From an uncultured Desulfobacterales bacterium (GTDB taxonomy: Bacteria; Desulfobacterota; Desulfobacteria; Desulfobacterales; Desulfococcaceae): a stretch of 64,000 nucleotides of DNA. The notes under the pieces were generated by a model, which had not been told where the DNA came from, made no database searches, and saw nothing but the letters and a program-made list of their open reading frames with translations. The stretch is from positions 143 through 64,142 of the forward strand of contig CAZNLT010000009.1 in the NCBI GenBank assembly GCA_964573705.1, read 5' to 3'. Made by a program: the position numbers and the translations under genes. Positions 13,516 to 38,111 of this stretch are shown here, in pieces; position 1 is the first letter of the stretch; each line of letters opens with the position of its first letter.

Positions 13516-13531
13516 TGGCACAGGGGTTGCA
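13516..13531 (+). promoter_or_regulatory. Sigma-54 (RpoN) promoter, -24/-12 elements
   Basis: TGGCACaggggTTGCA matches the TGGCAC-N5-TTGCW consensus exactly, with correct GG/GC spacing. It lies ~130 nt upstream of the 13660 gene, and a sigma-54 activator is encoded at the end of the same gene string. Confidence 0.7.
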
Positions 13532-13659
13532 CAATTCCGGGTAGTTTTTGCGGAAGTTGTAGATTAAACAGTGCGAGGTGGATTTGCAATGGGAATCGCG
13601 GATTGGAAGTCGGTTTTTTATAGCAATTCAAACAGTTAATCAAGAAAGGAGTTATTGCG

Positions 13660-14967: not shown

Positions 14968-15084
14968 AGAAATACGGTTGTGATTTTGAATCGATCCGGA
15001 AAGAAATAGAAAACGCCACGGGGCGGTCCGGTTTGTGAAGTTGAAACCGGCCGCCTCAGAGGCATACTGCTCAGAGGCATACGC

Positions 15085-15630: not shown

Positions 15631-15681
15631 TTCGCCCGGCGTCGGCCGTTCCGCCGCCGGTCCGATAAAGGAGGTCGCCCC

Positions 15682-17312: not shown

Positions 17313-17324
17313 GCGGAAGGTGTC

Positions 17325-18722
17325 ATGAGCGTCCCGTCGATTCTTATCGTGGATGACGAACCCGATATGCTTCAGCTCCTGAAACGGAGTCTGGAACCGG
17401 ACCTGAACTGCAAGGTGGAGATCGCCTCTTCGGCCAAATCGGCCCTTCACCTGATCTCCCAGAAGCATCCGGATCTGGTGCTGGCCGATATCAAGATGCC
17501 GGAGATGGACGGGCTGGAGCTGCTCGACCTGGTCAAGCGGAGCTGGCCCGAAATGACGGTGGTGATGATGACCGGTCACGGCTCCATTGAAACGGCGGTG
17601 GAGGCCATGAAGAACGGGGCCTATGATTTCATCACCAAACCCTTCGACCATGATGCGCTCCTGCTTCGGCTCGAAAAGGCCCTGGAACGTTCCACCCTGC
17701 TCAAGGAGAACATTCGGTTGAAGCAGGCCGAGGAATCCCCCCACCGGTTTCAGGGGCTGGTGGGCAAAAGCGCGGCCATGCGGCGGGTTTTCGATACCCT
17801 GCGGATGGTGGCCAACACCGATCTGACCGTGCTCATCACCGGGGAGTCGGGTACCGGCAAGGACCTGACCGCCCGGGCGGTCCACAAGCTGAGCACCCGC
17901 AAAGCGGGGCCTTTTGTGGCGGTCAACTGCCCCACGGTCCCGGAGCATATCCTGGAAAGCGAACTCTTCGGCTATAAAAAGGGGGCTTTTACCCATGCTA
18001 CCCAGAACAAGATCGGTCTGTTTCAAGAGGCCGGCGGCGGGTCGATTTTTCTGGATGAGATCGGCGACGTCAGCCCCACCATTCAGACCAAGCTGCTTCG
18101 GGTGCTTCAGGAAAAAGAGATCAAACCGTTAGGGGATACCCGATCCATTACCGTGGATGTGCGCATCATCTCTTCCACCAATCAGGACCTTCGGGAAAAA
18201 ATCCGCAAAGGCGAATTCAGGGAAGACTTTTTCTACCGGTTGAACGTGCTTCCCATTGAACTTCCCCCGCTTCGGGAGCGGCGGGAGGACATTCCCCTGA
18301 TCGCCGGCCATCTGATGGAAAAGCACTGCGCCAAACTCAACAAGCCTTTGAAGGTACTCTCGCCGGAGCTTCTGGAAAGCTTTCAGGAAAGGAGCTGGGA
18401 AGGAAATGTGCGGGAACTCGAAAACGTCATCGTCCAGGGAATTCTGTTTTCCACCACCGAAACCATTCGGCCGAGGGATGTCGGGTTCCCCCGAAAACCC
18501 GAGTCCACGCCCTGCCCGGGAGAGGTCACCTTTGAAGACCTGCCCTACAAATCCGCCAAAGAGGCGGTGCTTCATCGGTTCAACGCCGCCTACATCGGCG
18601 GGCTTCTGGAACAGACCGGCGGCAACGTCACCCAGGCCGCCAAACAATGCGGCCTGGAGCGCCAGTCCCTTCAGCAGATCATGCGTCGGTATGACATCGA
18701 TGCCGATGATTATCGATCCTGA
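17325..18722 (+). CDS. Sigma-54-dependent response regulator (NtrC family: REC + AAA+ + Fis-type HTH)
   Basis: 465 aa. REC (ILIVDDEPDM, LVLADIKMPEMDG), Walker A GESGTGKD, sigma-54 contact loop GAFTHA (a GAFTGA variant), C-terminal HTH NVTQAAKQCGLERQSLQQIMRRY. Confidence 0.93.
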   Translation: MSVPSILIVDDEPDMLQLLKRSLEPDLNCKVEIASSAKSALHLISQKHPDLVLADIKMPEMDGLELLDLVKRSWPEMTVVMMTGHGSIETAVEAMKNGAYDFITKPFDHDALLLRLEKALERSTLLKENIRLKQAEESPHRFQGLVGKSAAMRRVFDTLRMVANTDLTVLITGESGTGKDLTARAVHKLSTRKAGPFVAVNCPTVPEHILESELFGYKKGAFTHATQNKIGLFQEAGGGSIFLDEIGDVSPTIQTKLLRVLQEKEIKPLGDTRSITVDVRIISSTNQDLREKIRKGEFREDFFYRLNVLPIELPPLRERREDIPLIAGHLMEKHCAKLNKPLKVLSPELLESFQERSWEGNVRELENVIVQGILFSTTETIRPRDVGFPRKPESTPCPGEVTFEDLPYKSAKEAVLHRFNAAYIGGLLEQTGGNVTQAAKQCGLERQSLQQIMRRYDIDADDYRS

Positions 18723-18935
18723 ATTCGGTCTTTCGGGTCGGCGCGTCCATGATCTTACCGGTTTACAAAAACCGGCAAAAAAATCGGTGATCCCGATTCG
18801 ATCGATTCGATCAAATGATGTTGCATCCGTCCCGGCGGATATGGTAGCATCCCTTTCGTCCCTTTGAACCGGGCCCTAAATCGGCCCGACCCTTCGACAA
18901 CATCTTATTACGACTCCGAGTTGATATTTTTACAT

Positions 18936-20039
18936 ATGCGGTATTTCTGTTGGTTTGTTCTGGTAATGGTTTTCTTCTTTCCGGCAGCTTCCGTGTCGTC
19001 TGCGGAAGCAATTTCTTCCGACCTGTCGCGTTTTCCTTCTCTGATATCGAGTCTGCGGATCGATCCGCCGATGGATTTCTGTGGGGAGCCGGTTCCGCTG
19101 GGCTATCCGGAAGTTCGGGAGCGTTTGGAAAAGCAGATTCTGCTGGCCCTCTGGGACCGGGCCCAGGTGATTTTGTGGATCAAGCGATCGGGCCGGTATA
19201 TGCCTTATATCGAGAAGATGCTCAAGCAGCACGGTCTTCCCGACGATCTCAAGTATGTCGCCATCGTGGAGAGTGCGCTTCGACCCCATGTCGGGTCTTC
19301 CGCGGGGGCAGTGGGATATTGGCAATTTATCAGATCCACCGGCCAGCGGTACGGGCTTCGCATCGACCGCTATGTGGATGATCGGAGAAATATATTCAAA
19401 TCCACCGAAGCGGCGATCGCCTATTTGAAAAAGCTGTATCAGGATTTCAATTCCTGGACCCTGGCGGCGTCCGCCTACAACATGGGGGAGCGGGGCCTTC
19501 AGAATGCCATCAACGAGCAGAAGACAGCCGACTATTATCATCTCTATCTTCCACTGGAAACCCAGAACTACATACCGAAAATCCTGGCGGTCAAGATGAT
19601 TCTGAGCGATCTGCCCAAATACGGGTTTCACATTTCCCGGAATGACCTCTATACGCCCCTTCAGTTCGACCGGGTGGAGATCGACCTTCCGGATTCGGCC
19701 CATATACAGCTGATCGCCGAAGCCGCCGGGACTTTTTTTAAAACCATCAAAGATCTCAATCCGGAACTCCGGGGCAGTTATCTGACCAAGGGACACCACG
19801 CCGTTCTGATCCCGGAGGGGGCCGCCAAAACCTTTGCCGCCCGATTCAAAAAATTGTATGAAAGTTCCGCAGTCCGAAAAGAAGATGCTGAAAAGATCAC
19901 CCATGTGGTAAAACCGGGAGAGTATCTATCCGGCATCGCAGAAAAATACCGGGTCCCCCTCTCTCATCTGCTTCGCTGGAACAATCTGAATATGGACAGC
20001 AAAATCCATCCCGGAAATCGGCTGATCATCCTCAAATAA
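18936..20039 (+). CDS. Lytic murein transglycosylase (SLT domain) with a C-terminal LysM
   Basis: The ATG at 18936 (MRYFCWFVLVMVFFF) gives a signal peptide. SLT catalytic region AIVESALRP..GAVGYWQF. LysM HVVKPGEYLSGIAEKYRVPLSHLLRWNNL. The track ORF starts earlier at a TTG (18864). Confidence 0.85.
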   Translation: MRYFCWFVLVMVFFFPAASVSSAEAISSDLSRFPSLISSLRIDPPMDFCGEPVPLGYPEVRERLEKQILLALWDRAQVILWIKRSGRYMPYIEKMLKQHGLPDDLKYVAIVESALRPHVGSSAGAVGYWQFIRSTGQRYGLRIDRYVDDRRNIFKSTEAAIAYLKKLYQDFNSWTLAASAYNMGERGLQNAINEQKTADYYHLYLPLETQNYIPKILAVKMILSDLPKYGFHISRNDLYTPLQFDRVEIDLPDSAHIQLIAEAAGTFFKTIKDLNPELRGSYLTKGHHAVLIPEGAAKTFAARFKKLYESSAVRKEDAEKITHVVKPGEYLSGIAEKYRVPLSHLLRWNNLNMDSKIHPGNRLIILK

Positions 20040-20040
20040 G

Positions 20041-21798
20041 TTACAAATAGGGATCTTTGATCCCATCGAACCGGTGCCGGTTCGGGGGGCGGCCCACCGA
20101 TTTGTCCGCCGGGCGGCTTTTCAGGTCCGCTATTCGATAGGCGGACCGGATTTTTCGCTTAAAATTGGTGGCATCCAGGTCCTTGCCCAGAACGATTTCA
20201 AACACCCGCCTCAGTTCCGGCCAAGTGAATTCCTTCGGTACCAGCTCAAATGCGATCGGGGTATAGGAAATCTTCCCCTGAATCCGCGTCAGAAGATCCT
20301 GCAATATTCGATCATGGCCGAAAACGATTCCGTCCCCCCGGGATTCGGCTTCTTTCTGAAACTCCTTCAGGGAAAACCAGGCGGTTTCTGAATCGCCTTC
20401 CGATTCCAAATCCTTCAGGGGCAGCTTTTCCTCCGGGATCAGGGCAAAGTAGGCGGTGGTGATCATACGGTTCAGGGGGGTGTGATCCGGCGGATCATAG
20501 GTCTTCAGTTGTTCCAGATAGATCCCCTCGGGATGAACCAACTCCTCCAGCCGCCGGGTCACGGTCTCCTCCAGGTTTGGGTTTTCAGCCGCCTCCAGAA
20601 AACCGCCCGGTATGGCCCAGGATTCGGAACAGGGGCCGGATTTCCGTTTTACCAACAGCACTTGAAGGGCCTCATCCCGAATGGTACAGACGGCGATGTT
20701 TACGGACACCCTCGGCTTTTCGGGCCCCGGTTCAGGCCGGGCAATTGAATTCGGTGGATTTCGGGACGTGGGCGGCTGATCTCCCTGCGGGTCGGGGTTT
20801 TCGTCGCATTCCCCTTCATACAGGTGATGCTTCCGTATGAACCGCCGCACCGGTTCCGGAACCATCCCCTCAACCGATTCGCCGCATCGGATTTTTTGAC
20901 GGACTTTCGTGGAGCTGATATCCGGCATATCGGCATCGGTCAAGTGGATGTGCGGAGGGCGGGAAAGCAGTCCGTCGTAGCCTTTCAGATCATATCCGGG
21001 ACGCGGCACGATAATGAAGGTGACCATTCGGGCCAGCAGATCGGCATGCTTCCATTTATCGTCGAATTCGAGGACGCAGTCTGAGCCGACCACCATATGA
21101 AAATCGATAATGTCCTTAAAGCCGGGGTCCTGAAGCAGCCGGTTGAAGGTGACGTAGGTTTCACCGCTGAGTTTGTGGTCGATTTCATAGCTGAAGTAGC
21201 GCAGTCGCTCGGTTTCGACCATTCGAATCATTCGGATTCGTTGTTCGGCGTATTCATCATGCTTTTGAAAAGGGTGGCGAAAGGCGGGCATCATCCAGAC
21301 CTGGTTCATGTCCGGAATCTTTTCCAGGACCGTCTCCCCCAGTTTCAGATGGCCATGGGTAATGGGGTTGAAGGACCCGCCCATGATCGCGACCTTTGTT
21401 TTTCGCCGGGGAATCCGCCGTTCATAGAACCGGGCGTAGGGAGTGGTGAAATGGCGGCCGTAGACATCCGAGCGGTCGATATGAAGGTCAAGATTCTGTT
21501 CTCGACAGTAATCGGCTTTGGTCCGATTCCATATTTCCTCATCCATGTAGGGGGACCCCTGAATATAGGTGATCTTCACCCCCCGGGACTTTTGATAAGA
21601 GGTGACGGAGAAAAGGCGGGTCCAGGACAGTCGCAGGTCTTCCCGAAGATATTTTTCGAGGGCCGGGGTGAGTTCTTCTTCGGTCAGCAGGTGAACCTCA
21701 TGGCCGTTTTCCACCAGAAGGCGGGAAAGTTCGGAAAAAAAAGAATTCTTCACCGCCCCCACCTGATGGATATCGATTCCGAGTTTGATCTTTTTCAT
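20041..21798 (-). CDS. nadD: Three-domain fusion: unknown N-terminal domain + nicotinate/nicotinamide-nucleotide adenylyltransferase (NadD-like) + Nudix/winged-helix NrtR-like module
   Basis: 585 aa. aa 134-327 carry GGSFNPITHGH and ISSTKVR (the nucleotidyltransferase HxGH and ISSTxxR motifs). aa 363-505 form a Nudix fold with a degenerate Nudix box (GGFLEAAENPNLEETVTRRLEEL). aa 490-585, IVFGHDRIL..ISYTPIAFELVPKEFTWPELRRVFEIVLGKDLDATNFKRKI, match the NrtR C-terminal wHTH signature. Confidence 0.85.
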   Translation of the reverse strand: MKKIKLGIDIHQVGAVKNSFFSELSRLLVENGHEVHLLTEEELTPALEKYLREDLRLSWTRLFSVTSYQKSRGVKITYIQGSPYMDEEIWNRTKADYCREQNLDLHIDRSDVYGRHFTTPYARFYERRIPRRKTKVAIMGGSFNPITHGHLKLGETVLEKIPDMNQVWMMPAFRHPFQKHDEYAEQRIRMIRMVETERLRYFSYEIDHKLSGETYVTFNRLLQDPGFKDIIDFHMVVGSDCVLEFDDKWKHADLLARMVTFIIVPRPGYDLKGYDGLLSRPPHIHLTDADMPDISSTKVRQKIRCGESVEGMVPEPVRRFIRKHHLYEGECDENPDPQGDQPPTSRNPPNSIARPEPGPEKPRVSVNIAVCTIRDEALQVLLVKRKSGPCSESWAIPGGFLEAAENPNLEETVTRRLEELVHPEGIYLEQLKTYDPPDHTPLNRMITTAYFALIPEEKLPLKDLESEGDSETAWFSLKEFQKEAESRGDGIVFGHDRILQDLLTRIQGKISYTPIAFELVPKEFTWPELRRVFEIVLGKDLDATNFKRKIRSAYRIADLKSRPADKSVGRPPNRHRFDGIKDPYL

Positions 21799-26999: not shown

Positions 27000-28256
27000 A
27001 TGATTGCTGAAATTCTATCCACCGGAGATGAAATCCGAACCGGGGCCTTGACCGACACCAACGTCGGATACCTGGCCCGACACCTCGAAGGGATCGGGGT
27101 GGATGTGGTCCGCCACCACTGCGTGGGGGATGATCCCGACATCCTTCAATCCATGCTGACGGAGATCGGCGGAAGGGCCGATATCTGCTTGGTGACCGGC
27201 GGCCTCGGACCCACCGAGGACGATATCACCGCCCCGGCCGCCGCCGCAGCCTGCGGCGCCGAATTGGAACTCGATGCCGAGGCCCTGAAGTCGATCGAAG
27301 ATTTCTTTTCCTCACGGAAACTGGAGATGCCGCCCTCGAATAAAAAACAGGCCCTGCTGCCCCGGGGAGCCGAAGCTCTGTACAATCCGGTCGGCACGGC
27401 GCCGGGGTTTGCGGTGACGATCGGTCGGTGCCGGTGTTTTTTCATGCCGGGGGTGCCTTTTGAAATGCGGCGCATGTTGTCGGATCAGGTGCTCCCGCGT
27501 CTGGAAGACCTGATGGAGGGGTCCCGGACCTTCCATCGGGTCCGGACCATCTCCACCTTCGGGCTCACCGAATCGGCCGCCGGCGACCGGCTCACCGGTC
27601 TGGTCGATGCGTATCCGGACCTTAAACTGGGAATGCAGGTTCGGTTTCCGGAAATCCACGTCAAGCTCTATGCGGCGGGGCCCGAAGAAGCGGTGATCGA
27701 TCAGCGTCTTGAGGAGGCGACCGGCTGGGTCCGGAAGCGGTTGGGGGAAAAGATCTTTTCCACCTCCGAGGAGTCGATGGAAGCGGTGGTCGGGGAACTG
27801 CTTCGAAATGCCGGCGCAACCGTCGCGGCCGCGGAAAGCTGCACCGGCGGTCTGCTGGCCCATCGGCTCACCGACGTGTCCGGAAGCTCCGATTATTTTC
27901 TTTTCTCCGGGGTCACTTATGCCAATGAGGCGAAAATAAAGGTGTTGGGGGTGAAGCCTGAAACCTTGGCGGATTACGGCGCGGTGAGCATCGAAACCGC
28001 CGAAGAAATGGCTGAAGGGGTGCGAAAATTGACCGGCGCCGATTACGGTATTTCCACTACCGGCATCGCCGGTCCGACCGGCGGAACCGACGAAAAACCG
28101 GTAGGCGCCGTTTGCATCGGGCTGGCCTCCCGGTCCAGCGTCGAGGGACGCAAATTTACCTTTCACTTTCCCCGGCGCTCCATGAACAAGCGCATATTCG
28201 CTACCACCGCATTGGACCTGCTTCGTAAAGCGCTCCTTCAGGAGACTGCCCGGTGA
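27000..28256 (+). CDS. cinA: CinA-family protein (MoCF-binding domain + PncC nicotinamide-mononucleotide deamidase domain)
   Basis: 418 aa. MIAEILSTGDEIRTGALTDTN, VTGGLGPTEDDIT and C-terminal AAAESCTGGLLA..GISTTGIAGPTGG. Confidence 0.9.
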   Translation: MIAEILSTGDEIRTGALTDTNVGYLARHLEGIGVDVVRHHCVGDDPDILQSMLTEIGGRADICLVTGGLGPTEDDITAPAAAAACGAELELDAEALKSIEDFFSSRKLEMPPSNKKQALLPRGAEALYNPVGTAPGFAVTIGRCRCFFMPGVPFEMRRMLSDQVLPRLEDLMEGSRTFHRVRTISTFGLTESAAGDRLTGLVDAYPDLKLGMQVRFPEIHVKLYAAGPEEAVIDQRLEEATGWVRKRLGEKIFSTSEESMEAVVGELLRNAGATVAAAESCTGGLLAHRLTDVSGSSDYFLFSGVTYANEAKIKVLGVKPETLADYGAVSIETAEEMAEGVRKLTGADYGISTTGIAGPTGGTDEKPVGAVCIGLASRSSVEGRKFTFHFPRRSMNKRIFATTALDLLRKALLQETAR

Positions 28257-28388
28257 TCACATACATGTATAAGAGTGCTTAAAATGCTGGAAATCGAAGA
28301 TTTTGATATTTACAGCCTGAATGAGGTATGCTGAAGCAATACCGAATGGAGGTGAACCGTAAATACTCAACTACAAGAAAAGCGTCGA

Positions 28389-28982
28389 ATGACGCCGGAA
28401 GAGTATCTCGAGTTCGATAGCGTTTCAGATATCAGGCATGAATACTCCGATGGTGAGATATTCGCCATGACAGGCGGAAGTTTGAACCATAACCAAATCA
28501 ACATCAATATCGCCGGCCAATTGAAAAATAAGCTTACAGGCACCCCATGCAGACCGCTTGCAAGTGATATGAGAGTGAAAATCGAAGAGCTTGGCAAGTA
28601 CACGTATCCCGACATCGTCATTGTCTGTGGAAATATCGAGTTGGAAAAATTCAAAGGAATAGAGACATTACTCAATCCCGTGGCCATCATAGAGATTCTT
28701 TCCGATTCCACCGAGGCATATGACCGGGGAAAAAAATTCACCGATTATCGGCTTATTCCTTCACTTCGCGAGTACATTCTTGTGTCCCAAAATCATTGCA
28801 ATGTGGAGCAATTCTCTCGTGGCGACAGGGGTATCTGGCAAATTCTGAACCCATGCACGGATATGGAGCGGTCCATTACAATCGAGTCCATTGGTTGTGA
28901 ATTGCTGCTTTCCGATATCTATGAACTAGTTGAATTTGAGACTGACAGCCGGTCCGACCAACCGGCAGAGCCGATCGCGTGA
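28389..28982 (+). CDS. Uma2-family (DUF820) endonuclease
   Basis: 197 aa. EYLEFDSVSDIRHEYSDGEIFAMTGGSLNHNQI and ..YTYPDIVIVCG..VAIIEILSDST..DRGKKF..Y fit the PD-(D/E)XK Uma2 pattern. The gene is visibly lower in GC than its flanks. Confidence 0.8.
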   Translation: MTPEEYLEFDSVSDIRHEYSDGEIFAMTGGSLNHNQININIAGQLKNKLTGTPCRPLASDMRVKIEELGKYTYPDIVIVCGNIELEKFKGIETLLNPVAIIEILSDSTEAYDRGKKFTDYRLIPSLREYILVSQNHCNVEQFSRGDRGIWQILNPCTDMERSITIESIGCELLLSDIYELVEFETDSRSDQPAEPIA

Positions 28983-29036
28983 ACGATGAGGATTAAAATT
29001 CGAGCTTTCCCATGCACAATAAAAAACCTGAAGAAG

Positions 29037-30179
29037 TTATTGAGGGTGAGGTGATTTCAGTCCATCCTTTATTTTCCTGAGCCGGGATTCGGAAGGGGAC
29101 GCCAGCAGGTTCTCGAGTCGGGGTACTTTGAGAAAGGCTGGCGGCGGGACAATTTCCGACTGCGGGCGATACCCGTATTTTTTGGCTGCAAACTTCTGTA
29201 CCTCTTCAGAATTCAAAGCATCAAGAAGCCTTTTGCCTTTGGGGGTGAGTGCGACAAAGGGATGGGGAATATTCAGGGTCGGCTCCGGATAGAGCACCCG
29301 AATCCGGGATTCCATCTTCTCTCGATAGACCGGAAAAGCCTGATAGAATGCGATGATCTGGCTTTCAGTGGCCATTGCAAAAGGATAGGCCCAGGGGCCC
29401 TGTTTGAGGAATTTGCTGAAGAGCGCCTCTTCGGAGTCGGGGAGCGGGCCCATGATCTCATACAACTGCTTCAGGCCGGCTGCCGGCAGGGGACCGTTTG
29501 AAGCGTCGGAAGGGGTATCGGGTAAGGCTTCCGCGATCAAATAAGCGGAAAGCCGCCCGACCGGGCTGTCCACAGGATCAGCGGTTCGAAGCACTACGGT
29601 TCCCTCCATATTCCGCAGGCCGAGGGTGTTCCAGGTTCGGCCGTCCCGCATCAGTTGAAGCAGGCGAGGGAAGTCGATGAGGTAGGGAACCTCATCGCTG
29701 ATCTTCGCGATTCCTTCTCCGATCAGGGTATGGAGAATATCGGACCAGGAATAGATCACAAGGGGAGAAGAAAACACATTCGCCTTCGAACCGGAATTCT
29801 CTGACGAGAAATTCTCTGGAATCGACTCTGAAAAAGGCCCGATCGTCCAGACCCCGTCCATCCTTTCCAAAGCCCCAGCGGGTATTCCTTCGGGGCCGTA
29901 TTTTTCACCGATCAACACTATATCGAACCGGCTCTTCAGAAGATCCCGGAAATCGGTGTCCTGAATCAACCCCTTTTTGTCTTCGCTGAAGAGGATGTGT
30001 ACGGTTTCCAGTTCACGGTCCGGCCCATTCTCCTGCTTCGGGTTTCGAACGGTTCCGAAAAGCAGAATTACCGCCAGAACCCCTGATCCAATGCACAGAC
30101 CGAAAAAAAGTTTCCATTTTCTGGTGCTTGCCAAAATCAGAAACAAAGCGAGAAATACCAGCAGCAGGATGCGACCCAT
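29037..30179 (-). CDS. Hypothetical membrane-anchored extracytoplasmic protein (possibly solute-binding-like)
   Basis: 380 aa with an AGGAGAA RBS and two N-terminal TM segments followed by a ~330-aa soluble domain. I recognise no motif. GC is lower than the core genes. Confidence 0.65.
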   Translation of the reverse strand: MGRILLLVFLALFLILASTRKWKLFFGLCIGSGVLAVILLFGTVRNPKQENGPDRELETVHILFSEDKKGLIQDTDFRDLLKSRFDIVLIGEKYGPEGIPAGALERMDGVWTIGPFSESIPENFSSENSGSKANVFSSPLVIYSWSDILHTLIGEGIAKISDEVPYLIDFPRLLQLMRDGRTWNTLGLRNMEGTVVLRTADPVDSPVGRLSAYLIAEALPDTPSDASNGPLPAAGLKQLYEIMGPLPDSEEALFSKFLKQGPWAYPFAMATESQIIAFYQAFPVYREKMESRIRVLYPEPTLNIPHPFVALTPKGKRLLDALNSEEVQKFAAKKYGYRPQSEIVPPPAFLKVPRLENLLASPSESRLRKIKDGLKSPHPQ

Positions 30180-30676: not shown

Positions 30677-31124
30677 TTAGACGTGTTCGGACATCCGTTC
30701 CGCTATGGCGTCGAAAGCATCGGTAACGCCGGTGTTTTTGTGGGTCACCTGATAACAGGTACCGGAATCGCCGCAAACCACCACCTGTGGGTCAAGGGGA
30801 ATCCGGCCCAGAAAGGGAACCCCGAAATCCTTTGCGGTCCGCTCTCCGTCGCCGCTTCCGAAAATGTCGGTTTCATTGCAGTGAGAGCAGGCGAACCCGC
30901 TCATGTTTCCACCATACCGAATACTTCCATTCGAGGTCCCCCCAATCCACATCCGAGATGTACTGCCGAATCACCGAATGTTTGACCGGCCCCCGCCAGA
31001 TGACGGTGGCATCCTTGTCCGGCGTGAGGGATTCGATGGAGACTGCGGAGAGGTTCTTGGAGTATTCATTTCCATCAACTCTTTCACACCTTCTGATGAT
31101 TCTCATGGGGAACATACGGCTCAC
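30677..31124 (-). pseudogene. Decayed Mrp/ApbC/NBP35-family Fe-S cluster carrier ATPase (P-loop lost, internal deletion/frameshift)
   Basis: Two out-of-frame fragments. ..SIESLTPDKDATVIWRGPVKHSVIRQYISDVDWGDLE.. matches the mid-protein WRGP.. / W..LD region. ..GGNMSGFACSHCNETDIFGSGDGERTAKDFGVPFLGRIPLDP.. matches the ENMS..C..C C-terminal region. The Walker A and the DxPPGTGD segment are missing. Confidence 0.7.
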
Positions 31125-31206
31125 GGCGAAAAGTAAGCGCTACTGTCAGGGGTTTCCGTCTTTGAGCGATCCTTCGCTGTGAACCGTATGTGGTTGTATG
31201 TTTCGG

Positions 31207-31623
31207 TTAATGTTCGGTGACCCGGTGAAAATACTGGCCTCCACAGGAGGGGCATTTTTCCGGTTTGCCGGCGCCCATCGGCTCTTCCCACTTGTTTTCG
31301 CATTTTTCACAGACGAAAATTCGGGATTCTTCCATCAGGGTGAAATTGCCGCCCTCGACATTAATGGCCTTTCCGTTGATAAGGGCATCCGCGATGACCT
31401 TGCGGGCGCGCTGGATAATCCGGCCGAAGGTCGCCCGGGAGACGCCCATTCGCTGTCCCGCCTCTTCGTAAGACAGGCCGAGAAGATCCGACAGTCGAAT
31501 GGATTCGCGTTCATCAACCGTCAGGCAGATTTCCTCAAGGCTTACCATGGGGATGCCTCTGGGTTTGAAATAGCTGATTTCCGGATTGAACCCGACGAGG
31601 CGATTTTTTTTGGGTCTGACCAT
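31207..31623 (-). CDS. DUF134 (UPF0251) predicted DNA-binding protein with a C-terminal zinc ribbon
   Basis: 138 aa. MVRPKKNRLVGFNPEISYFKPRGIP..LTVDERESIRLSDLLGLSYEEAGQRMGVSRATFGRIIQRARKVIADAL is the DUF134 HTH signature. C-terminal CEKC..CPSC. Confidence 0.85.
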   Translation of the reverse strand: MVRPKKNRLVGFNPEISYFKPRGIPMVSLEEICLTVDERESIRLSDLLGLSYEEAGQRMGVSRATFGRIIQRARKVIADALINGKAINVEGGNFTLMEESRIFVCEKCENKWEEPMGAGKPEKCPSCGGQYFHRVTEH

Positions 31624-31693
31624 ATCTCTCTCTCCTTTATATTGAGTTTACCTCTGTGTAGGGTGTTAATCGCTGTACTGTTTTTTTTCAATA

Positions 31694-31731
31694 CCTTTTC
31701 TCATCTTTTATCGAAAAAAAATGAGAAAAGG
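31694..31731. repeat. Perfect 11-bp inverted repeat CCTTTTCTCAT-N16-ATGAGAAAAGG
   Basis: Read directly from the sequence. The spacer extends the pairing (CTTTT-atcg-AAAA). It lies in the ~35% GC divergent region between the DUF134 gene and the large helical-repeat gene, ~70 nt from the DUF134 start. Confidence 0.7.
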
Positions 31732-32090
31732 GGCTGAAAGAACCATTTCTTCTCAAAATAAGTATCGACTTACCCTTTTCAATTCTTTTTATCAAGAAAA
31801 TTTGAAAAAAGCGGGTATTTTTTTTACGCCGGTTTCATATATACTAATTTGGGATTTTGGGAAAGCATTATTTCATCTATTTTATCTTTACGCAAATTTG
31901 GTTTTATTATTTGTTGATCGGATGCAAGAAATTTGATACTGATCAGTTTTGATTTTGTGAGTTATCAATGAAATCTGTTTAAGTAACCCAGGGAGAAATC
32001 GTTCGGGTGAAACGGTTTTATTCCGCCGAAGAGCGCGGATGTTTCACAAACGATTTTTTTTTATTGGAACCGATTCGGGTGGGCGGAGCG

Positions 32091-34859
32091 ATGGCGGCTA
32101 AAAAGAAAAAGCGAAAAGAAAAAGGGACCTACAAACAATTTGAAAACCTGTCTTTTGATGATATTGTTCAAAAAATTGAGAATGCGCTTTCCTCTGAAAA
32201 TCCCCGGGACGCCCTCTATACCCTGAAATTTGCCATGAAAAAATTCGGGGAATCCGCCCCGATTCGGTCTCTTTTTTTTCGGGCATATCTGCTGCGGGAG
32301 AAACAGCTCAGAGCCAAATCGCTGCATGACGAAGCCGATGCGGTTCGGGAGCTGGCAAACCGGTTCCTGCCTGAATTCGATCAAATGTCGGAAGCGGTTC
32401 TGATCGATTACATATCCAACGCATCTGAAAAAAAGGCGGTCGAAGCCTATGCCGGTTATCTGAAAAACAGGGCCAGGTCTCCGAAAATCGAGCAGACTCT
32501 GGCTCATCGCCTGTTCATAGGCCGGGATTGGAAAGCCGTCGACATATTGGAGACGGACCACCCGCTCCGCCGGGACGCGGGCCCGGTTCAAAAGGCGGTG
32601 ACTCTGATGAACGATGCGGCCTGGGAACAGGCCCTGGATGCCTTGAACCCGATTCCCCGAACCTCCTCCTATGCCTCGATTCGGGTGTTCTGCCGGGCCA
32701 TGGCCTCTTTCTTCAGGGGGGATGACAAAACCGCGTCGCGAGCTTTGGAGATGATTCCCTCCGATTTTCCCCTTTCCCGAACCATCGGGGACCTCAAGCG
32801 GATTCTCCGTGAATCCACCCCGGAGGATGAAAAAAGGGCCGCCATGGAGGCGGTGGGTTACCTTTGGGACGGGCCGGTCAATCTCCAACGGGACATTCAA
32901 GACCTGATCGAGTGCATCGATCATAAACGCTTCAAACAGGCGGTGGAAAGGGTTCAGGCAGTCGCCTCCGCCTTCAATCCGTCGGAACCGCTGAGGGTGA
33001 CCACCTTCATCACGGAATGCCTGTGGCGGTTTTCCGCTACGGGGCGGCTGGAAGACTACGATTTCCAAAAGATGGCTCAGGCCCTTCTGCCCAAAAAAAT
33101 AATCGAGCCGATGTTTGTCAAGGTCCGCCTCGTCAGCAGCATCAAACCGTTTACATCGGCGGGCTTGTACATTTCCGAACTGGACAAGGAGTTCCCCGAT
33201 CCCGAAGAGCGAAAAATCGCCCATGCCCTGACTCTTTTGCAGACGGCTATCTATCTATTCGCACAGGACGGGCACATGCAGTTTCGGGTCGAACGACCGG
33301 CTATCGAAAAATACCGGGAACCACTGGGGATTCGCTCCGATACTTACGAAGGGGCCCTCCTGGACATGGTTTGCTTCAGCACCCGCATCGATCCGGGAAA
33401 CCGAAAAGCCTATGAATTTTTGGCCGATCTTCCCAGAAATTCCAGAGAGGACAAAAAAAAGGTGGAGAGCGGCTTCGGTGTGATGCTGAAGGAATTTCCG
33501 GATGATCCCTTCCCCTGCCTGGAATTGGCTTCTCTGTTCTACGAAAGCAATGCCTTCCGAAAGGCTGAAAATATTCTGGAGGAGGCGATGAAACGGGCCC
33601 CCCATGACGCCCGGGTACTCGATCGGCATGTCCTGTCGCTGCTCATTTCCTCTGAAATCAATATACGTCGGGAGAAATATCATCTGGCGGAGCGGGACCT
33701 GGACCGGGCGGCATCTTTTGAAAATAAAAAAATGGAACCCTTTGTTCTGGAGAAAAAACTCCTGTTCGACCTCAAAAAGTCCGCGAAGCATCTCGATCCG
33801 GATGAGCCCGATATGAAAAAACAGAGGTCGCTCTTCGGAAAGCGACGCACCCCCGCTTCCCTGATAATGGAAACCCTGACCGAATACTCCCTGTATGACC
33901 GGCTCAAGGTGCTGTCTCTTCTGCTCCTGGATATTCATGGAAAAAAACTGCCCAGGAAAACGGTTCTTCTGAAATCGGTGAATCCGCTTCTGGATGCGGA
34001 GCTGAAAGCGGGCGTCAAAAGCCTCGGCTCATCCGAAATATTCCAACTGCTCACTCCGCTCCCGAAGGAATATGATCCCCTTTATGAAAATCTACATCCA
34101 GCGGCCCTGTTGATCGAAAGATCCAAGTCGCTTCTGAATGTGCTGGACACCGAGGATGCCCTGCGCCTGTATGAACGCATTCTGATCCCCTCACTCTACA
34201 CGGTCATCATAAAGGACCTTCGGTCCCGGGCCAAAAAGGCATCAGAGAAGGACCGCCGGCTTTTGGATTTTTTCCGCGTGACGGTCGACCATCTCTCCGG
34301 TAAAAAAGAGGATTCCGAATTGTTTTATGAGGTGATCGATGAGGTGGAAGAAAGGCCGACCCTCGAAGCGCTGCGCGCCCTGTCCCGACGGCTGGCCCGG
34401 CATGCCGCGGGAAGGCTTCGAATGGCCCTTGAGGAGTTCGATTTTGAGATTCTGGATGAACCCATGGGGTTTCCGGGGCTGCCATTCGATCTCGACCTGG
34501 AAGACCTTATTCCCCGGATGGAAGACCTCATAGGGGATATGGAGGACGACGAATCGGATGAGGAGCGGCTGTTTGAAGCGCTGGAGGTCCTGTCGAAAAT
34601 CGGAATGACCGAAAACGACGCCTTCAAAGAAGAATTGGGGTTCGTCATCGAGGAGGCGGAAGACTGGGTCGACTCCCTCGAAATCAGGGGATATCCGAAC
34701 CACCTGATCAAGCAGATGCGGAACATGGTGTTTAAAACCGACCCGGATGTCAAGCGGGAATTGAACATGATCGGCCGGGTATTGGAACAGACCGGCACGC
34801 ATTCCAAACTCTCCCGGGAGGCTCAGGTCCTCTTGTACGGGAAGGCCCGAAAGAAATAG
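32091..34859 (+). CDS. Large (~922-950 aa) all-helical / TPR-like repeat protein, first gene of the non-canonical Hsp70 operon
   Basis: The ORF is open from GTG 32007. The ATG at 32091 (MAAKKKKRKEKG..) follows GGGCGGAGCG. The protein has a Lys-rich N-terminus, TPR-like stretches (e.g. LELASLFYESNAFRKAENILEEAMKRAPHDARVLD) and an acidic C-terminal third (DLDLEDLIPRMEDLIGDMEDDESDEE). No enzymatic motif was seen. Confidence 0.8.
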   Translation: MAAKKKKRKEKGTYKQFENLSFDDIVQKIENALSSENPRDALYTLKFAMKKFGESAPIRSLFFRAYLLREKQLRAKSLHDEADAVRELANRFLPEFDQMSEAVLIDYISNASEKKAVEAYAGYLKNRARSPKIEQTLAHRLFIGRDWKAVDILETDHPLRRDAGPVQKAVTLMNDAAWEQALDALNPIPRTSSYASIRVFCRAMASFFRGDDKTASRALEMIPSDFPLSRTIGDLKRILRESTPEDEKRAAMEAVGYLWDGPVNLQRDIQDLIECIDHKRFKQAVERVQAVASAFNPSEPLRVTTFITECLWRFSATGRLEDYDFQKMAQALLPKKIIEPMFVKVRLVSSIKPFTSAGLYISELDKEFPDPEERKIAHALTLLQTAIYLFAQDGHMQFRVERPAIEKYREPLGIRSDTYEGALLDMVCFSTRIDPGNRKAYEFLADLPRNSREDKKKVESGFGVMLKEFPDDPFPCLELASLFYESNAFRKAENILEEAMKRAPHDARVLDRHVLSLLISSEINIRREKYHLAERDLDRAASFENKKMEPFVLEKKLLFDLKKSAKHLDPDEPDMKKQRSLFGKRRTPASLIMETLTEYSLYDRLKVLSLLLLDIHGKKLPRKTVLLKSVNPLLDAELKAGVKSLGSSEIFQLLTPLPKEYDPLYENLHPAALLIERSKSLLNVLDTEDALRLYERILIPSLYTVIIKDLRSRAKKASEKDRRLLDFFRVTVDHLSGKKEDSELFYEVIDEVEERPTLEALRALSRRLARHAAGRLRMALEEFDFEILDEPMGFPGLPFDLDLEDLIPRMEDLIGDMEDDESDEERLFEALEVLSKIGMTENDAFKEELGFVIEEAEDWVDSLEIRGYPNHLIKQMRNMVFKTDPDVKRELNMIGRVLEQTGTHSKLSREAQVLLYGKARKK

Positions 34860-34874
34860 ACAGGAACGGATGAT

Positions 34875-35174
34875 ATGCTGCCCTATTATTATATTCTGAA
34901 TGTGTCTGAAGATGCCACCGACGAAGAGATTCGAAACAGCTATCTGCGGCTGGTCAAACAGTATACCCCGGAAAAGGACCCGGTTCGGTTTCAACAGGTG
35001 ACCGAGGCTTATGAAGCCCTTCAGAACCGGCGGCGGCGCATTCTCGGGAAGATTTTCGGCGGCCTCAGCATCAAAGAACCGGAGAACGGGCTGTTGACCC
35101 TGGCCGCATCCCGCCGACCGGTCCGGCGGCCGGTGAGTCTGCAAACCTTGTTTGATGCGGAAAATGAAGACTGA
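34875..35174 (+). CDS. Minimal J-domain-like protein with HPD replaced by TPE
   Basis: 99 aa. YYYILNVSEDATDEEIRNSYLRLVKQYTPEKDPVRFQQVTEAYEALQN aligns position for position with J-domain helices I-III (canonical ..KYHPDKNP..). No G/F, zinc-finger or C-terminal client-binding domains. Confidence 0.8.
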   Translation: MLPYYYILNVSEDATDEEIRNSYLRLVKQYTPEKDPVRFQQVTEAYEALQNRRRRILGKIFGGLSIKEPENGLLTLAASRRPVRRPVSLQTLFDAENED

Positions 35175-36030
35175 TATCCGCCGGAGAATCGCCGCCTGCC
35201 GTAGATGGCTCGGTGACATGATGCGGGAGCGCCTGGTTCGGCCGGCGCAACGGTATTTTTCGATTCAGCATAGACCTTCCGCCGAAACGGACTTCAATGA
35301 AGAAAGCGGGTGGAAGGAAAAGGCCATGGCCGATTTCCGCACCTGGCTGGAATCTCTTCCCGAAACCCCTCCGCCCGCTGAAGATCCGGGACCCGAATCA
35401 GCCGATCTCCTGACGCTGCTTGCCGAATTCACCGCCCTTCAGCAGGAGGTGCGGCTGCAGAACCGGGAGCAGAACAAGGGGGTATTGGCGCTCAATCGAT
35501 TCATTGAGGATTTTCAAAAAACCGATGCGACCCTCGCTTCGATAGGGGATAAAAACCGGCGAATGGCCGAGGCGATCACCGCACTGGCCGGGGAATTGGA
35601 AAAAGTGGAAGATCGTATTCGAAACACGGTTGAAAACCGAGACGACGCCCGCCAGGCCCAGTGGAAGCAGGACATCGAAAAAAGCGCCGTTCGTCCCTTT
35701 CTGGATGTACGGGACGCCTTGGTCCGCGGGTTGAAAGCGGCCCGGGAGGCATCCGGGTCCGGCGGCTTTTTCAGGGCTTCGCCCAAAAATATCGAAGGGG
35801 TGATCGAAGGCTATTCCATGGCCCTGCGCCGTTTTGACCGGGCCCTGGCGGTGGTCGGGATTCGTCCGGTGGAGGCGGTGGGCAAACCCTTCGACCCCAA
35901 AATCATGCGGGCGGTGGACACCCGCCCCGGCCCTGAAGAAAAAAAAGGAATCGTGGTCGCAGAGCAGCTCGGCGGTTTTGTCCGCGGGGACGAGGTGATT
36001 CGAACCGCCGAAGTGGTGGTCGTATCCTAA
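35152..36030 (+). CDS. GrpE-like nucleotide exchange factor
   Basis: The helical segment LLAEFTALQQEVRLQNREQNK corresponds to GrpE AEFEN-type helices. The C-terminal beta domain GIRPVEAVGKPFDPKIMRAVDT..GIVVAEQLGGFVRGDEVIRTAEVVV matches the GrpE G.pFDP..HeA..v..GY.l.drvlRpA.V.V pattern. Start is uncertain: TTG 35152 or ATG 35155/35164 overlap the J-like gene, and ATG 35326 follows GGAAGGAAAAGG. Confidence 0.75.
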   Translation: MMRKMKTDIRRRIAACRRWLGDMMRERLVRPAQRYFSIQHRPSAETDFNEESGWKEKAMADFRTWLESLPETPPPAEDPGPESADLLTLLAEFTALQQEVRLQNREQNKGVLALNRFIEDFQKTDATLASIGDKNRRMAEAITALAGELEKVEDRIRNTVENRDDARQAQWKQDIEKSAVRPFLDVRDALVRGLKAAREASGSGGFFRASPKNIEGVIEGYSMALRRFDRALAVVGIRPVEAVGKPFDPKIMRAVDTRPGPEEKKGIVVAEQLGGFVRGDEVIRTAEVVVVS

Positions 36031-36080
36031 CCATATTTTATCATTGTTAAAATTAAGAAGAAGAAAGAAGGGGAAAACGT

Positions 36081-37826
36081 ATGGAACCGATCGTCGGTAT
36101 CGATCTCGGAACCACCAATTCCGAAATCGCTTATATCATCAATGAAAATGCGGAAGTGTTGACCGACCGGGATAACGGCATCTTTCCCTCCTGCGTCGGA
36201 ATCGATGCCCAGGGCAAAATCATCGTCGGCGCCGAAGCCAGAAACCAGGCGGTGCTGGCACCGGAGCGGACGGTGATGTCGGTAAAACGGCTGATGGGGA
36301 CGGAGACCCAGATTCCCATGGGAGAAAACCTGTATCGGCCCCAGGAGATTTCCGCCTTCATCCTGAAAGCCTTGAAGGCCCGGGCCGAAAAGGTGCTGGA
36401 CCGGGCTGTGTCCAAAGCCGTGATTACGGTGCCGGCCTATTTTACCGACGCCCAGCGGCACGCCACCCGGGAAGCGGGCCGGCTGGCCGATCTGGAAGTG
36501 GTGCGGATCATCAATGAACCCACCGCCGCGGCCCTGGCCTATGAAAGCACCCAGTCGGAACCCAGACGCATCCTGATTTACGACCTGGGGGGCGGCACCT
36601 TCGACGTCTCCATCGTCAAAATCGAACAAGGCGTGGTGGAGGTGCTGGCCAGCACCGGAGACAATCACCTGGGCGGCGACGATTTCGATCAAAAGATCGC
36701 CGACCGGCTGATGGAATACTGCACCGGTGAGCTGAAGCTGACCGACAGGAATGATCCGGTTTTGAAGGCACGTCTGAAGCGTGCCGCGGAAAAGGCCAAA
36801 ATCGAGCTCTCCTCCGCCCCCTACGCTCGAATCGAAGAAGACCACCTCGGCAAACGGGGTTTCAAGGATGTGCATCTCTCCTACGAACTTTCCCGGGAGG
36901 ATTTCGAAGAGATGATCGAAGACGACCTGGCGCGTACCATGGAATCGGTCAATAAGGCGCTTAAGGATTCGGAGTCGCTGCCCTCGGCCATCGACAAGAT
37001 CATCCTGGTGGGCGGGTCGACCCGGATTCCCAGAATTTCCGCCATGCTGGAGGAAAAATTCCAAAAAATGCCTCACGGCGAGATCGATCCGGATCTCTGC
37101 GTGGCATTAGGGGCGGCCATTCAGGCCGGCAGGGAAATGGGCCTGGACAGCTCCGGAATTTTGCTGGACATCACCCCCTATACCTTCGGGACCTCGGCCC
37201 TGGGGGAGGTGAACGGGATCCCCACCCACCATCAGTTCGTGCCGATGATCCGCAGAAACACCAAGCTCCCGGTCGCCAAAACCGAAGCCTTCTACACGGT
37301 CTATGACGACCAGGAGGCGGTGGAAATCAATGTGTACCAGGGGGAGGAACCGATCGCTCTCGACAACGTGCGGATCGGAAATTACCGGTTTGAACTCACC
37401 AAGGCGCCTCAGGGGAGCGTCATCCTTCTCAATTATGATCTCGACCTCAACGGGATTTTGAAGATCCAGGCGGTCGAAAAGAAAACCGGCCGCAAAATCA
37501 ACGCGGTCATCGAAAATGCCTTTTCCGAATTTTCCGAAGAGGCGTTTTCCGAGTCCAAGGAGCGGATCGCCGCTTTATGGGCTGAGGATGAGGAGGCTAC
37601 AACCGGCTTCAGCGGAGAGGTCGAGGCCGATCAGCTGGATATGCCGGAGGATATCGCCGAAACCCTGAACCTGGCGAAGTCAAAACTGGATGCCGCTCCG
37701 GAAGAGGATCGGGATCAGATGATCGACCTGATGGAGGATATCCGGGATTCGGTTCAATCCGGCGATCTTGAAAACGCGAAACGGCAGCAGGCCGAACTCG
37801 ATGACATCCTTTTTTACATCGGATAG
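36081..37826 (+). CDS. Hsp70-family ATPase (DnaK/HscC-like) with a shortened acidic lid
   Basis: 581 aa. IVGIDLGTTNS, VITVPAYFTDAQRHATREAG, VRIINEPTAAALAY, IYDLGGGTFDVSIV, ILVGGSTRIPRI. The SBD-beta is present (LLDITPYTFGT.., INVYQGE). After it only ~100 mostly acidic residues remain. Confidence 0.93.
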   Translation: MEPIVGIDLGTTNSEIAYIINENAEVLTDRDNGIFPSCVGIDAQGKIIVGAEARNQAVLAPERTVMSVKRLMGTETQIPMGENLYRPQEISAFILKALKARAEKVLDRAVSKAVITVPAYFTDAQRHATREAGRLADLEVVRIINEPTAAALAYESTQSEPRRILIYDLGGGTFDVSIVKIEQGVVEVLASTGDNHLGGDDFDQKIADRLMEYCTGELKLTDRNDPVLKARLKRAAEKAKIELSSAPYARIEEDHLGKRGFKDVHLSYELSREDFEEMIEDDLARTMESVNKALKDSESLPSAIDKIILVGGSTRIPRISAMLEEKFQKMPHGEIDPDLCVALGAAIQAGREMGLDSSGILLDITPYTFGTSALGEVNGIPTHHQFVPMIRRNTKLPVAKTEAFYTVYDDQEAVEINVYQGEEPIALDNVRIGNYRFELTKAPQGSVILLNYDLDLNGILKIQAVEKKTGRKINAVIENAFSEFSEEAFSESKERIAALWAEDEEATTGFSGEVEADQLDMPEDIAETLNLAKSKLDAAPEEDRDQMIDLMEDIRDSVQSGDLENAKRQQAELDDILFYIG

Positions 37827-37832
37827 CCAAGT

Positions 37833-38111
37833 ATGGACCGCTGCCCCACATGCCGGGCCGATTACCGGGGCGGGGATTTCTGCCACCGGTGCAAAACCGA
37901 TTTGAAGCCGGTGCTGGAGATCGAAACGCGGGCCGAAGACCACCGAACCGAAGCGGTTCGGGCGTTTCACCGGAAGGATTTCAGGTCCATGTATTATCAC
38001 GCCCGGCGGTCCCGGGCCTTGCATCGCACCCCTGAATCCGACCGGCTGCTGGCCTGTGCGGCCATGCTTTCCGGAAATTTTGGTCTTGCGATTTCCCTCT
38101 GGAATCCTTAG
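37833..38111 (+). CDS. Small zinc-ribbon protein (CxxC-N10-CxxC) with a helical tail, last gene of the Hsp70 operon
   Basis: 92 aa. MDRCPTCRADYRGGDFCHRCKTD.. The start is 6 nt after the Hsp70 stop. Confidence 0.6.
   Translation: MDRCPTCRADYRGGDFCHRCKTDLKPVLEIETRAEDHRTEAVRAFHRKDFRSMYYHARRSRALHRTPESDRLLACAAMLSGNFGLAISLWNP

Follow-up and report, generated by a model that had tools for sequence, protein, structure and literature searches.

What kind of chaperone is encoded by a compact group of five genes on contig CAZNLT010000009.1 of an uncultured Desulfobacterales bacterium (GenBank assembly GCA_964573705.1): the housekeeping Hsp70 of the cell, or a separate Hsp70 machine with partners of its own? 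The group lies within a stretch of 64,000 nucleotides (nt), all of which was analyzed and which we call the window, and consists of five plus-strand open reading frames (ORFs) that span 32091-38111. A first-pass annotation of this DNA had described them as co-directional and packed, and every ORF was recovered with the spacings it gave, namely 15, -23 (-20 with the GrpE ATG at 35155 as the start codon), 50 and 6 nt. The genes, together referred to as the module, encode a giant protein built of tetratricopeptide repeat (TPR)-like helices, three proteins of the Hsp70 cycle and a small zinc-ribbon protein. We regard the module as a specialized Hsp70 system, and thus of a known kind, to which two unannotated protein families are attached, and the comparisons below demonstrate at the sequence level that, in several phyla, its five genes have been passed on together as a unit.

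32091-34859, + strand: giant TPR-like alpha-solenoid gene, 922 amino acids (aa); the long ORF begins at GTG 32007
34875-35174, + strand: J-like gene, 99 aa, Pfam DnaJ
35155-36030 (TTG 35152 possible), + strand: GrpE-like gene, 292-aa ORF overlapping the end of the J-like gene
36081-37826, + strand: divergent Hsp70 gene, 581 aa, Pfam HSP70
37833-38111, + strand: zinc-ribbon gene, 92 aa, CxxC-N10-CxxC

A word-indexed search returned only 21 relatives of the giant protein, while an exhaustive profile search collected a family of 199 clusters at 50% identity (E < 1e-30). Scanning one genome per GTDB species located the giant gene at 67 loci, nearly all of them in Desulfobacterales, with Desulfonema, Desulfococcus, Desulfobacter, Desulfocicer, Desulfatirhabdium, Desulfamplus and Desulfosalsimonadaceae among the host groups. 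By tblastn, the order giant, J-like, GrpE-like, Hsp70, zinc-ribbon holds in all of the approximately 50 Desulfobacterales loci that have sufficient downstream DNA. The sequences flanking the module vary between genomes, and with one gene order found again in some 50 independent genomes whose flanks differ, the clustering is far beyond chance; the proposal of one conserved five-gene unit therefore withstood the synteny check well. When the five proteins are compared pairwise across 45 complete loci, their identities are correlated (r = 0.75-0.92), the solenoid co-diverging most tightly with the Hsp70 (r = 0.92), and mean identity is highest for the Hsp70 (64%) and lowest for the solenoid (33%). 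Hsp70 identity ranges from 54 to 96% across the order. All five genes are also present on four high-GC contigs of other lineages (L072, L073, L074 and L076), of which L072 is flanked by PSCyt1, PSCyt2, PSD1 and DUF1501 genes typical of planctomycetes and L076 by COQ7, YggX and MutY genes that have a gamma- or beta-proteobacterial look.

Several loci depart from this layout. At L009, approximately 8 kb of co-directional histidine-biosynthesis and other genes (12700-20845) lie between the giant and J-like genes, and at L042 (11494-14200) the giant gene is split, a PIN-domain gene is inserted and the giant gene stands apart from the J-like gene; because the two genes are separated at these loci, adjacency of the giant gene is not absolutely needed. 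The metagenome-assembled genome (MAG) UBA4064 carries three distinct giant gene copies (contigs L044, L045 and L058), 31-40% identical to the window protein, with the full downstream module behind at least two of the three; these represent either true paralogous modules or a mixed bin. In a MAG labeled 'Pseudomonadota bacterium' (L070, 9944-12119), the giant gene is represented only by a fragment, two ORFs that between them match residues 388-816; J, GrpE, Hsp70 and zinc-ribbon genes are all missing from the 10 kb downstream, and the fragment looks like a decayed remnant. The gene caller missed the zinc-ribbon ORF in two of the high-GC loci. One of these is L074, where a fusion of zinc-ribbon protein and Hsp70 was considered and rejected, as the 633-aa Hsp70 there has a longer acidic insert and the zinc-ribbon protein is a separate, uncalled ORF. 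At L075, the idea that a 1053-aa neighbor is the giant gene in inverted orientation was likewise rejected (hhalign probability 0.2%). In Desulfonema magnum (CP061800; L001, 1-9900), a dense patch upstream of the module holds HicAB, PIN/RelB-like and PemK toxin-antitoxin genes along with genes for a Fic protein and a Type ISP restriction enzyme; among the genomes compared, such a patch adjoins the module in D. magnum only.

The 581-aa Hsp70 matches Pfam HSP70 (E = 2e-140). It misses the NCBIfam DnaK equivalogs, with 498.1 bits against a cut-off of 648 (NF001413) and 492.2 against 822.55 (TIGR02350), as well as the HscA equivalog (413 bits against 708.55), and membership in either group was rejected on these scores, as had been anticipated for DnaK. 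NCBI names the protein 'Hsp70 family protein', and the annotations of the Desulfonema genomes call it 'DnaK-like'. A dnaK gene is present in 98.9% of bacterial genomes (PMC11019930). The score cut-offs, the naming chosen by annotators and the near-universality of dnaK lead us to read the protein as specialized rather than housekeeping. No controlling inverted repeat of chaperone expression (CIRCE) was found in the 64-kb window, which suggests that the module lies outside heat-shock wiring.

Residues of the Hsp70 were compared in E. coli DnaK numbering; the reference sequence was checked at 20 literature-numbered residues, each of which occupies its expected position. The catalytic set (D8, K70, E171, T199 and D201) is kept in nine of nine sequences, as are R151, R167, N170, T173, L391, D393 and P419. 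Together with R167, L391 and P419, the J-contact set includes Q378, which is kept in all of the nine but L073 (His). The hydrophobic substrate pocket is retained and the interdomain linker is kept, so that the earlier description of canonical Hsp70 motifs stands for the catalytic and allosteric residues examined. These comparisons establish, as far as sequence can, the Hsp70 clade as a monophyletic subfamily with intact catalytic machinery. Its departures from E. coli DnaK lie in the nucleotide-binding domain (NBD), the beta subdomain of the substrate-binding domain (SBD-beta) and the C-terminal lid.

~36288-36311, + strand: site of a 24-aa deletion in NBD-IB relative to E. coli DnaK, in all lineages
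37155-37178, + strand: interdomain linker GILLDITP, kept relative to E. coli DnaK
37212-37235, + strand: NGIPTHHQ, the 8-aa insert of the SBD-beta hairpin beta1-beta2; eight residues are inserted here in all lineages
~37578-37646, + strand: acidic disordered segment in place of lid helix B, a clade-wide feature, from residue mapping and the AlphaFold2 model
37806-37823, + strand: C-terminal ILFYIG, a clade-wide motif

In all lineages, four residues around D211 are deleted, the E206 position is non-acidic (Lys/Arg or other) and the lid latch residues D540/H544 are lost. The beta1-beta2 hairpin that carries the 8-aa insert forms part of the substrate cleft. In the AlphaFold model (predicted local distance difference test, pLDDT, 75.6), which resembles full-length DnaK and BiP with template modeling (TM) scores of 0.75-0.79 (Foldseek), SBD-beta is followed by a short helix A (residues 486-499), a 23-residue acidic disordered linker (500-522) and a confidently modeled three-helix bundle (523-580). 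The C-terminal segment is 96 aa long, compared to 98 aa for the E. coli lid, with a net charge of -21 rather than -9. The description of a 'short-lid' Hsp70 whose lid is replaced by ~100 acidic residues thus does not hold: according to the model the lid is remodeled and more acidic, neither absent nor short, and what shortens the protein relative to DnaK is the NBD deletion together with the lack of a C-terminal tail. The motif (I/L)L(F/Y)Y(I/L/M)(G/E) lies no more than two residues from the C-terminus in 54 of 54 full-length Hsp70 ORFs, and is also found in L072-L076.

Homology of the J-like protein to J domains is clear from its match to Pfam DnaJ (PF00226; E = 9.1e-13, 48.6 bits against a cut-off of 27.8) and from the PDB, where 38 of the 41 matches at E <= 0.01 are J-domain (DnaJ-family) chains. 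The protein lacks glycine/phenylalanine-rich (G/F), zinc-finger and client-binding domains.

aa 1-57, + strand: J domain, followed by a conserved tail of ~40 aa (RRRxGLxEL)
34965-34973, + strand: TPE at the HPD position, from alignment to solved J domains

The substitution of TPE for HPD, read from the letters in the first pass, is borne out once the protein is aligned on the HPD position, and the lack of HPD is conserved in 58 distinct sequences. In Desulfobacterales the motif is [HYF]-[TSP]-P-E with an invariant P-E; other lineages have PPS, PPA or PPG. The loop between helices II and III is shortened relative to solved J domains. On helix II, R22 is kept and Leu occupies the K26 position. 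K26 contacts E206 of DnaK, and the counterpart acidic patch on the module Hsp70 is also lost. In the DnaK-DnaJ complex these residues make functional contacts, and stimulation is lost with each of the HPD substitutions that have been tested (PMC8215388).

The GrpE-like protein matches Pfam GrpE (PF01025; E = 4.7e-22), residues 127-291 aligning to profile positions 12-164 of 165, and falls under every NCBIfam GrpE equivalog cut-off. The long N-terminal extension noted at first sight is present; its extreme N-terminus is variable, and it contains two motifs conserved in 16 loci.

35311-35364, + strand: N-terminal motif WK..AL.DF..WL..LP
35401-35472, + strand: N-terminal motif CDLYTLLSEFxALRQEIxxQNREQ

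At L072 (9832-12480) the GrpE-like protein has 882 aa, of which approximately 230 form a normal GrpE and the following ~650 are acidic, Ala/Gly-rich and of low complexity; since the giant protein of that locus has no acidic linker, an acidic disordered region may have moved between subunits.

For the giant gene, the first pass gave a TPR-like protein of ~920-950 aa with a poly-Lys N-terminus. Its TPR-like and polybasic character is upheld, and the longer start is not: ATG 32091, which is M29 of the long ORF, is preceded by a GGAG Shine-Dalgarno sequence, and a MAKKKK start occurs at this position in 19 of 19 aligned homologues, so that the most likely product, judged from these sequence signals, is the 922-aa protein.

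32091-32126, + strand: polybasic N-terminus, seen in all lineages
33495-33617, + strand: most conserved TPR core, FPDDPFPCLELA...APHD
34437-34457, + strand: FDFEILD motif, conserved and hydrophobic
~34461-34556, + strand: acidic disordered linker, from the AlphaFold2 model
34809-34856, + strand: end of the C-terminal helical domain, LSREA..LLYGKARKK, polybasic

Pfam detects a single TPR_19 match in this protein. The AlphaFold2 model is an all-alpha solenoid (pLDDT 81) with disorder at residues 1-40, 602-610 and 819-850. A specific fold relative was sought and rejected, as Foldseek searches of the PDB returned only generic TPR scaffolds (Ski3, Naa15, Ctr9 and IFT-A; TM 0.13-0.22) and the sequence profile found nothing significant there; the same searches place the protein in no characterized client family, an outcome in favor of the first-pass reading. 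In L072 and L073 the giant protein ends at or just past the position of FDFEILD (the motif itself is present in L072) and therefore has neither the acidic linker nor the C-terminal domain.

The zinc-ribbon protein is conserved, with four invariant cysteines, in 54 sequences. Its gene starts 6 nt past the Hsp70 stop codon with no obvious Shine-Dalgarno sequence.

37842-37892, + strand: CxxC-N10-CxxC, followed by ~65 aa of TPR-like helices

In Pfam the protein has sub-threshold DZR/zinc-ribbon matches only and no zf-DNL (Hep1) match, and its family comprises 45 clusters, all annotated as hypothetical and devoid of a Pfam domain; neither this protein nor the giant protein belongs to a curated family. 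Matched against the PDB, the family profile finds only TPRs and L32/TniQ-type ribbons. The helical half, which amounts to about two TPR-like repeats, weakly resembles TPR domains, with Hop/STIP1 as the best match (summed E = 3.6e-5).

On this evidence we propose, with a probability of roughly one half, that the module encodes a self-contained, dedicated Hsp70 machine built around a TPR scaffold, which works in parallel with the housekeeping DnaK system and in insulation from that system. Because the catalytic and allosteric residues, linker and substrate pocket are kept and a GrpE homologue is encoded alongside, the Hsp70 would run a normal ATP/ADP cycle and be reset by its dedicated GrpE. The remodeled substrate hairpin, longer by 8 aa, and a lid that has lost helix B and the latch would suit one or a few particular clients, as opposed to unfolded proteins at large. 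The J-like protein would still dock at the interface of NBD, linker and SBD, and would pair with this Hsp70 only, since the His and Asp of HPD are absent and both helix II and the matching Hsp70 surface have lost charge; it may trigger hydrolysis through a modified contact, or act as a Pam16-like tether or regulator. The large solenoid is envisaged as a platform that, by way of its J-like and Hsp70 partners, delivers the chaperone to the place where it acts, and the Hsp70 tail, ILFY[IL][GE], could be a peptide that docks in a TPR groove, whether that of the solenoid or that of the zinc-ribbon/TPR protein, by analogy with the binding of EEVD by Hop or CHIP. The polybasic ends of the solenoid may anchor it to a polyanionic surface such as nucleic acid, ribosome, membrane or polyphosphate. 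Finally, the zinc-ribbon/TPR protein, presumably coupled in translation to the Hsp70, is a candidate small cofactor or escort of the chaperone.

Several points weigh against this proposal. Everything in it beyond the ATP/ADP cycle and its GrpE-driven reset is drawn from sequence. The solenoid matches only generic TPR scaffolds, which makes scaffold and client indistinguishable on that evidence, and the TPR likeness of the zinc-ribbon protein is weak in each individual stretch. Outside Desulfobacterales the J motif contains no acidic residue, yet R167 of the Hsp70 is kept, and for this reason the J-like protein is possibly no ATPase stimulator. At L075, J-like, GrpE-like, Hsp70 and zinc-ribbon genes occur with no giant gene upstream, on a contig that ends right after the zinc-ribbon gene. 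The search for a separate canonical dnaK covered the window and the ~20-kb flanks of 71 loci, and no second Hsp70 or dnaK gene was found in either.

The alternative that fares best, possible though on balance doubtful, assigns the solenoid the part of dedicated client, which the Hsp70, J-like and GrpE-like proteins would assemble, disassemble or recycle as an oligomer or coat, much as Hsc70 and auxilin act on clathrin, or HscA and HscB on IscU, whose gene shares their operon. The solenoid gene leads the operon and evolves faster than the other four, yet its product co-diverges most tightly with the Hsp70; its polybasic ends and acidic disordered linker carry opposite charges that could drive self-association; the conserved, hydrophobic FDFEILD beside the disordered region is a possible Hsp70 binding site; and a remodeled substrate loop and lid would fit a single folded client. 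However, the solenoid is modeled with confidence as a folded monomer and shows no sign of polymer-forming features, and the planctomycete-type giant proteins of L072 and L073 dispense with the acidic linker and C-terminal domain while the other four genes are unchanged. These features do not tell client from scaffold; we favor the platform role and consider the client role less likely.

Rather unlikely, in our estimate, is that the J-like protein is a non-stimulating pseudo-J of the Pam16/Tim16 type that only tethers or restrains the Hsp70, with the trigger for hydrolysis coming from the client alone or from a housekeeping J-protein with HPD that is supplied in trans. In that case the module would be similar to the import motor of mitochondria, in which mtHsp70 works with Pam16, Mge1, the zinc-finger escort Zim17/Hep1 and a scaffold, and its component list does parallel that of this presequence translocase-associated motor (PMC9695410; for Hep1, PMC3461517). 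In favor of such a role, the His and Asp of HPD are absent from 58 of 58 sequences, the PPS, PPA and PPG lineages have no acidic residue there, and all HPD substitutions tested abolish stimulation (PMC8215388), while the Hsp70 keeps the canonical HPD contacts R167 (in all) and Q378 (in all but one). On the other hand, an HPD-bearing J gene belongs to the conserved unit at no locus, the charge swap on the Hsp70 (E206 non-acidic, D211 deleted) speaks against a canonical DnaJ being used efficiently, and the lack of a Pfam zf-DNL match sets the zinc-ribbon protein apart from Hep1.

That the module is an anti-phage or conflict system with the Hsp70 as NTPase sensor or effector, a role offered in the first pass, is highly improbable. 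The toxin-antitoxin and Type ISP restriction genes beside the D. magnum module, the PIN gene inserted at one locus and a patchy-looking distribution outside Desulfobacterales could be taken to suggest it, but none of the five proteins matches a PADLOC-DB family better than E = 0.005 (the matches seen being to unrelated coiled-coil regions), no relative occurs among 2.9 million viral contigs, and domain scans reveal no nuclease, protease, pore or other effector domain. The window and most loci have core-metabolism flanks, and the five proteins are co-inherited across the order. A defense system was rejected on the negative PADLOC and viral-contig scans. Least probable of all is a divergent housekeeping DnaK-DnaJ-GrpE system: although all three core chaperone functions are encoded and no second dnaK was seen in the regions searched, the Hsp70 falls far under the DnaK cut-offs, the J protein is stripped of HPD and of G/F, zinc-finger and client-binding domains, CIRCE is absent, annotators of the complete Desulfonema genomes chose 'DnaK-like', and this clade occurs in a minority of lineages whereas dnaK is in 98.9% of bacterial genomes (PMC11019930).

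Compared with known systems, the module possesses the Hsp70, J-domain and GrpE folds, and falls outside housekeeping DnaK, HscA/HscB, HPD J-proteins, Hep1, the EEVD-clamp pairing of Hop/CHIP and known defense systems. It shares with DnaK-DnaJ-GrpE an Hsp70 comprising NBD, linker, SBD-beta and helical C-terminal domain, encoded together with a GrpE-fold exchange factor and a J-domain-fold partner. In contrast to DnaK, its Hsp70 is without the 24-aa NBD insert, disordered C-tail, lid helix B and latch, has the 8-aa SBD-beta insert and scores under the DnaK cut-offs; its J protein, at 99 aa, lacks HPD and the G/F, zinc-finger and client-binding domains; and two obligatory genes, for the TPR solenoid and the zinc-ribbon/TPR protein, are added, with CIRCE absent.

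HscA/HscB, HscC/DjlC and SglK/GrpS resemble the module in that each has a second Hsp70 whose lid or substrate specificity is altered and which is served by co-chaperones of its own, but none has its five-gene architecture. HscB and DjlC keep HPD. The module Hsp70 also differs from HscA in score (413 against 708.55 bits) and in having no isc context (HscB, IscU). Myxococcus SglK has its own GrpE, GrpS, encoded directly upstream (PMC13580251). The SglK/GrpS pair is described as bicistronic, its description mentions no TPR or zinc-ribbon partner, and it was rejected as the same system because no J-domain gene adjoins sglK and the candidate partner, SgmC, is encoded elsewhere. Besides HscA and, to a lesser degree, HscC, bacterial DnaK derivatives are, according to reviews, largely unexplored (PMC13580251), and dnaK duplication reportedly correlates with proteome complexity (PMC11019930). 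Literature searches on the five-gene architecture, on Desulfonema DnaK-like proteins and on HPD-less bacterial J proteins found no description, which agrees with the first-pass view that this is not a characterized system.

The component logic of the module matches that of the mitochondrial motor (mtHsp70, Pam18, Pam16, Mge1, Zim17/Hep1 and Tim44) by analogy, not homology. The import motor combines an Hsp70 with the GrpE-type Mge1, the HPD-less Pam16 and a positioning scaffold (PMC9695410), and Hep1/Zim17 is a small zinc-binding protein dedicated to Hsp70 (PMC3461517). In contrast, the module has no equivalent of the HPD-bearing Pam18, its zinc-ribbon protein has no zf-DNL domain, its scaffold is a TPR solenoid rather than Tim44, and it has no membrane or translocase context. 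As with Hop/STIP1 and CHIP, an invariant motif at the extreme C-terminus of the Hsp70 is accompanied by TPR proteins, here encoded alongside, and Hop/STIP1 provides the best solved-structure matches of the zinc-ribbon protein's helical half; however, the module tail is the hydrophobic ILFY[IL][GE] and not EEVD, the TPR match is weak and generic, and the small module protein has about two repeats where the carboxylate clamp has three.

If the module is the dedicated machine around a TPR scaffold that we propose, it is a clean and tractable case, in which a small set of genes supplies a whole Hsp70 cycle together with the partners dedicated to it and is conserved in genomes of at least three very different kinds. 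HPD, supposedly the one indispensable motif, is gone from its J partner, which is nevertheless under strong selection, and the module could for this reason show how an Hsp70 is driven or regulated free of HPD. The module could also reveal by what means Hsp70 systems that run in parallel within a cell keep their specificity, and whether TPR recognition of the Hsp70 C-terminal tail exists in bacteria, and it gives the unannotated families of 900-aa solenoids and zinc-ribbon/TPR proteins their first functional context. A bolder extension, which we put forward as speculative and improbable, is an HPD-free prokaryotic Hsp70 motor whose hydrolysis is triggered or gated jointly by the xPx J-like subunit and by a TPR platform, the latter capturing the hydrophobic Hsp70 tail, the machine being dedicated to a single cellular structure and anchored through the polybasic solenoid ends. 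If true, bacteria would have independently invented TPR co-chaperones that read the Hsp70 C-terminus as well as Pam16-like J-like subunits with a zinc-protein escort, both of which are otherwise thought typical of eukaryotic or organellar Hsp70 networks.

Upstream, the module is separated from its neighbor by a region presumed to be its promoter or regulatory region.

31624-32090, no strand: AT-rich intergenic region of 467 nt between the divergent DUF134 gene (- strand) and the giant gene (+ strand)

This region contains several A/T-rich inverted repeats and is the main reason that GC content drops to 0.446 in the 31001-32000 bin. No sigma-54 site was found near the module, promoter and terminator scans gave no enrichment of matches above chance there, and a lone, weak sigma-70-like match at 31616-31643 is not above shuffled sequence. 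The giant gene's upstream neighbors are the DUF134 gene (31207-31623, - strand), intact and 99% identical in the close relatives L005-L007, and then a fragmented gene for an Mrp/NUBPL-type iron-transfer P-loop NTPase (30677-31124, - strand). The latter lies in two reading frames, with fragments of 91 and 83 aa that match profile positions 173-245 and 70-113, and is either a pseudogene or an assembly frameshift. What had been called a low-GC, decayed accessory patch is hence an AT-rich intergenic region plus this fragmented gene, in a window of core chromosomal and metabolic content that includes guaA, NAD salvage, ADP-forming acetyl-CoA synthetase, DEAD-box helicase, pyrD and a rubrerythrin-like gene. 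The neighbors of the module are DUF134, pyrD and the rubrerythrin-like gene, and isc genes are absent there.

Between the CinA gene and the fragmented Mrp gene lie a putative endonuclease gene of the Uma2 family (28389-28982, + strand) and a 380-aa ORF with no Pfam match (29037-30179, - strand); GC content falls to 0.48 in the 28001-29000 bin. Farther away, a perfect sigma-54 consensus, TGGCACAGGGGTTGCA, occurs at 13516-13531 (+ strand), approximately 130 nt 5' of a TauE/SafE-family exporter gene (13660-14967), and a sigma-54 response regulator gene lies near it at 17325-18722.

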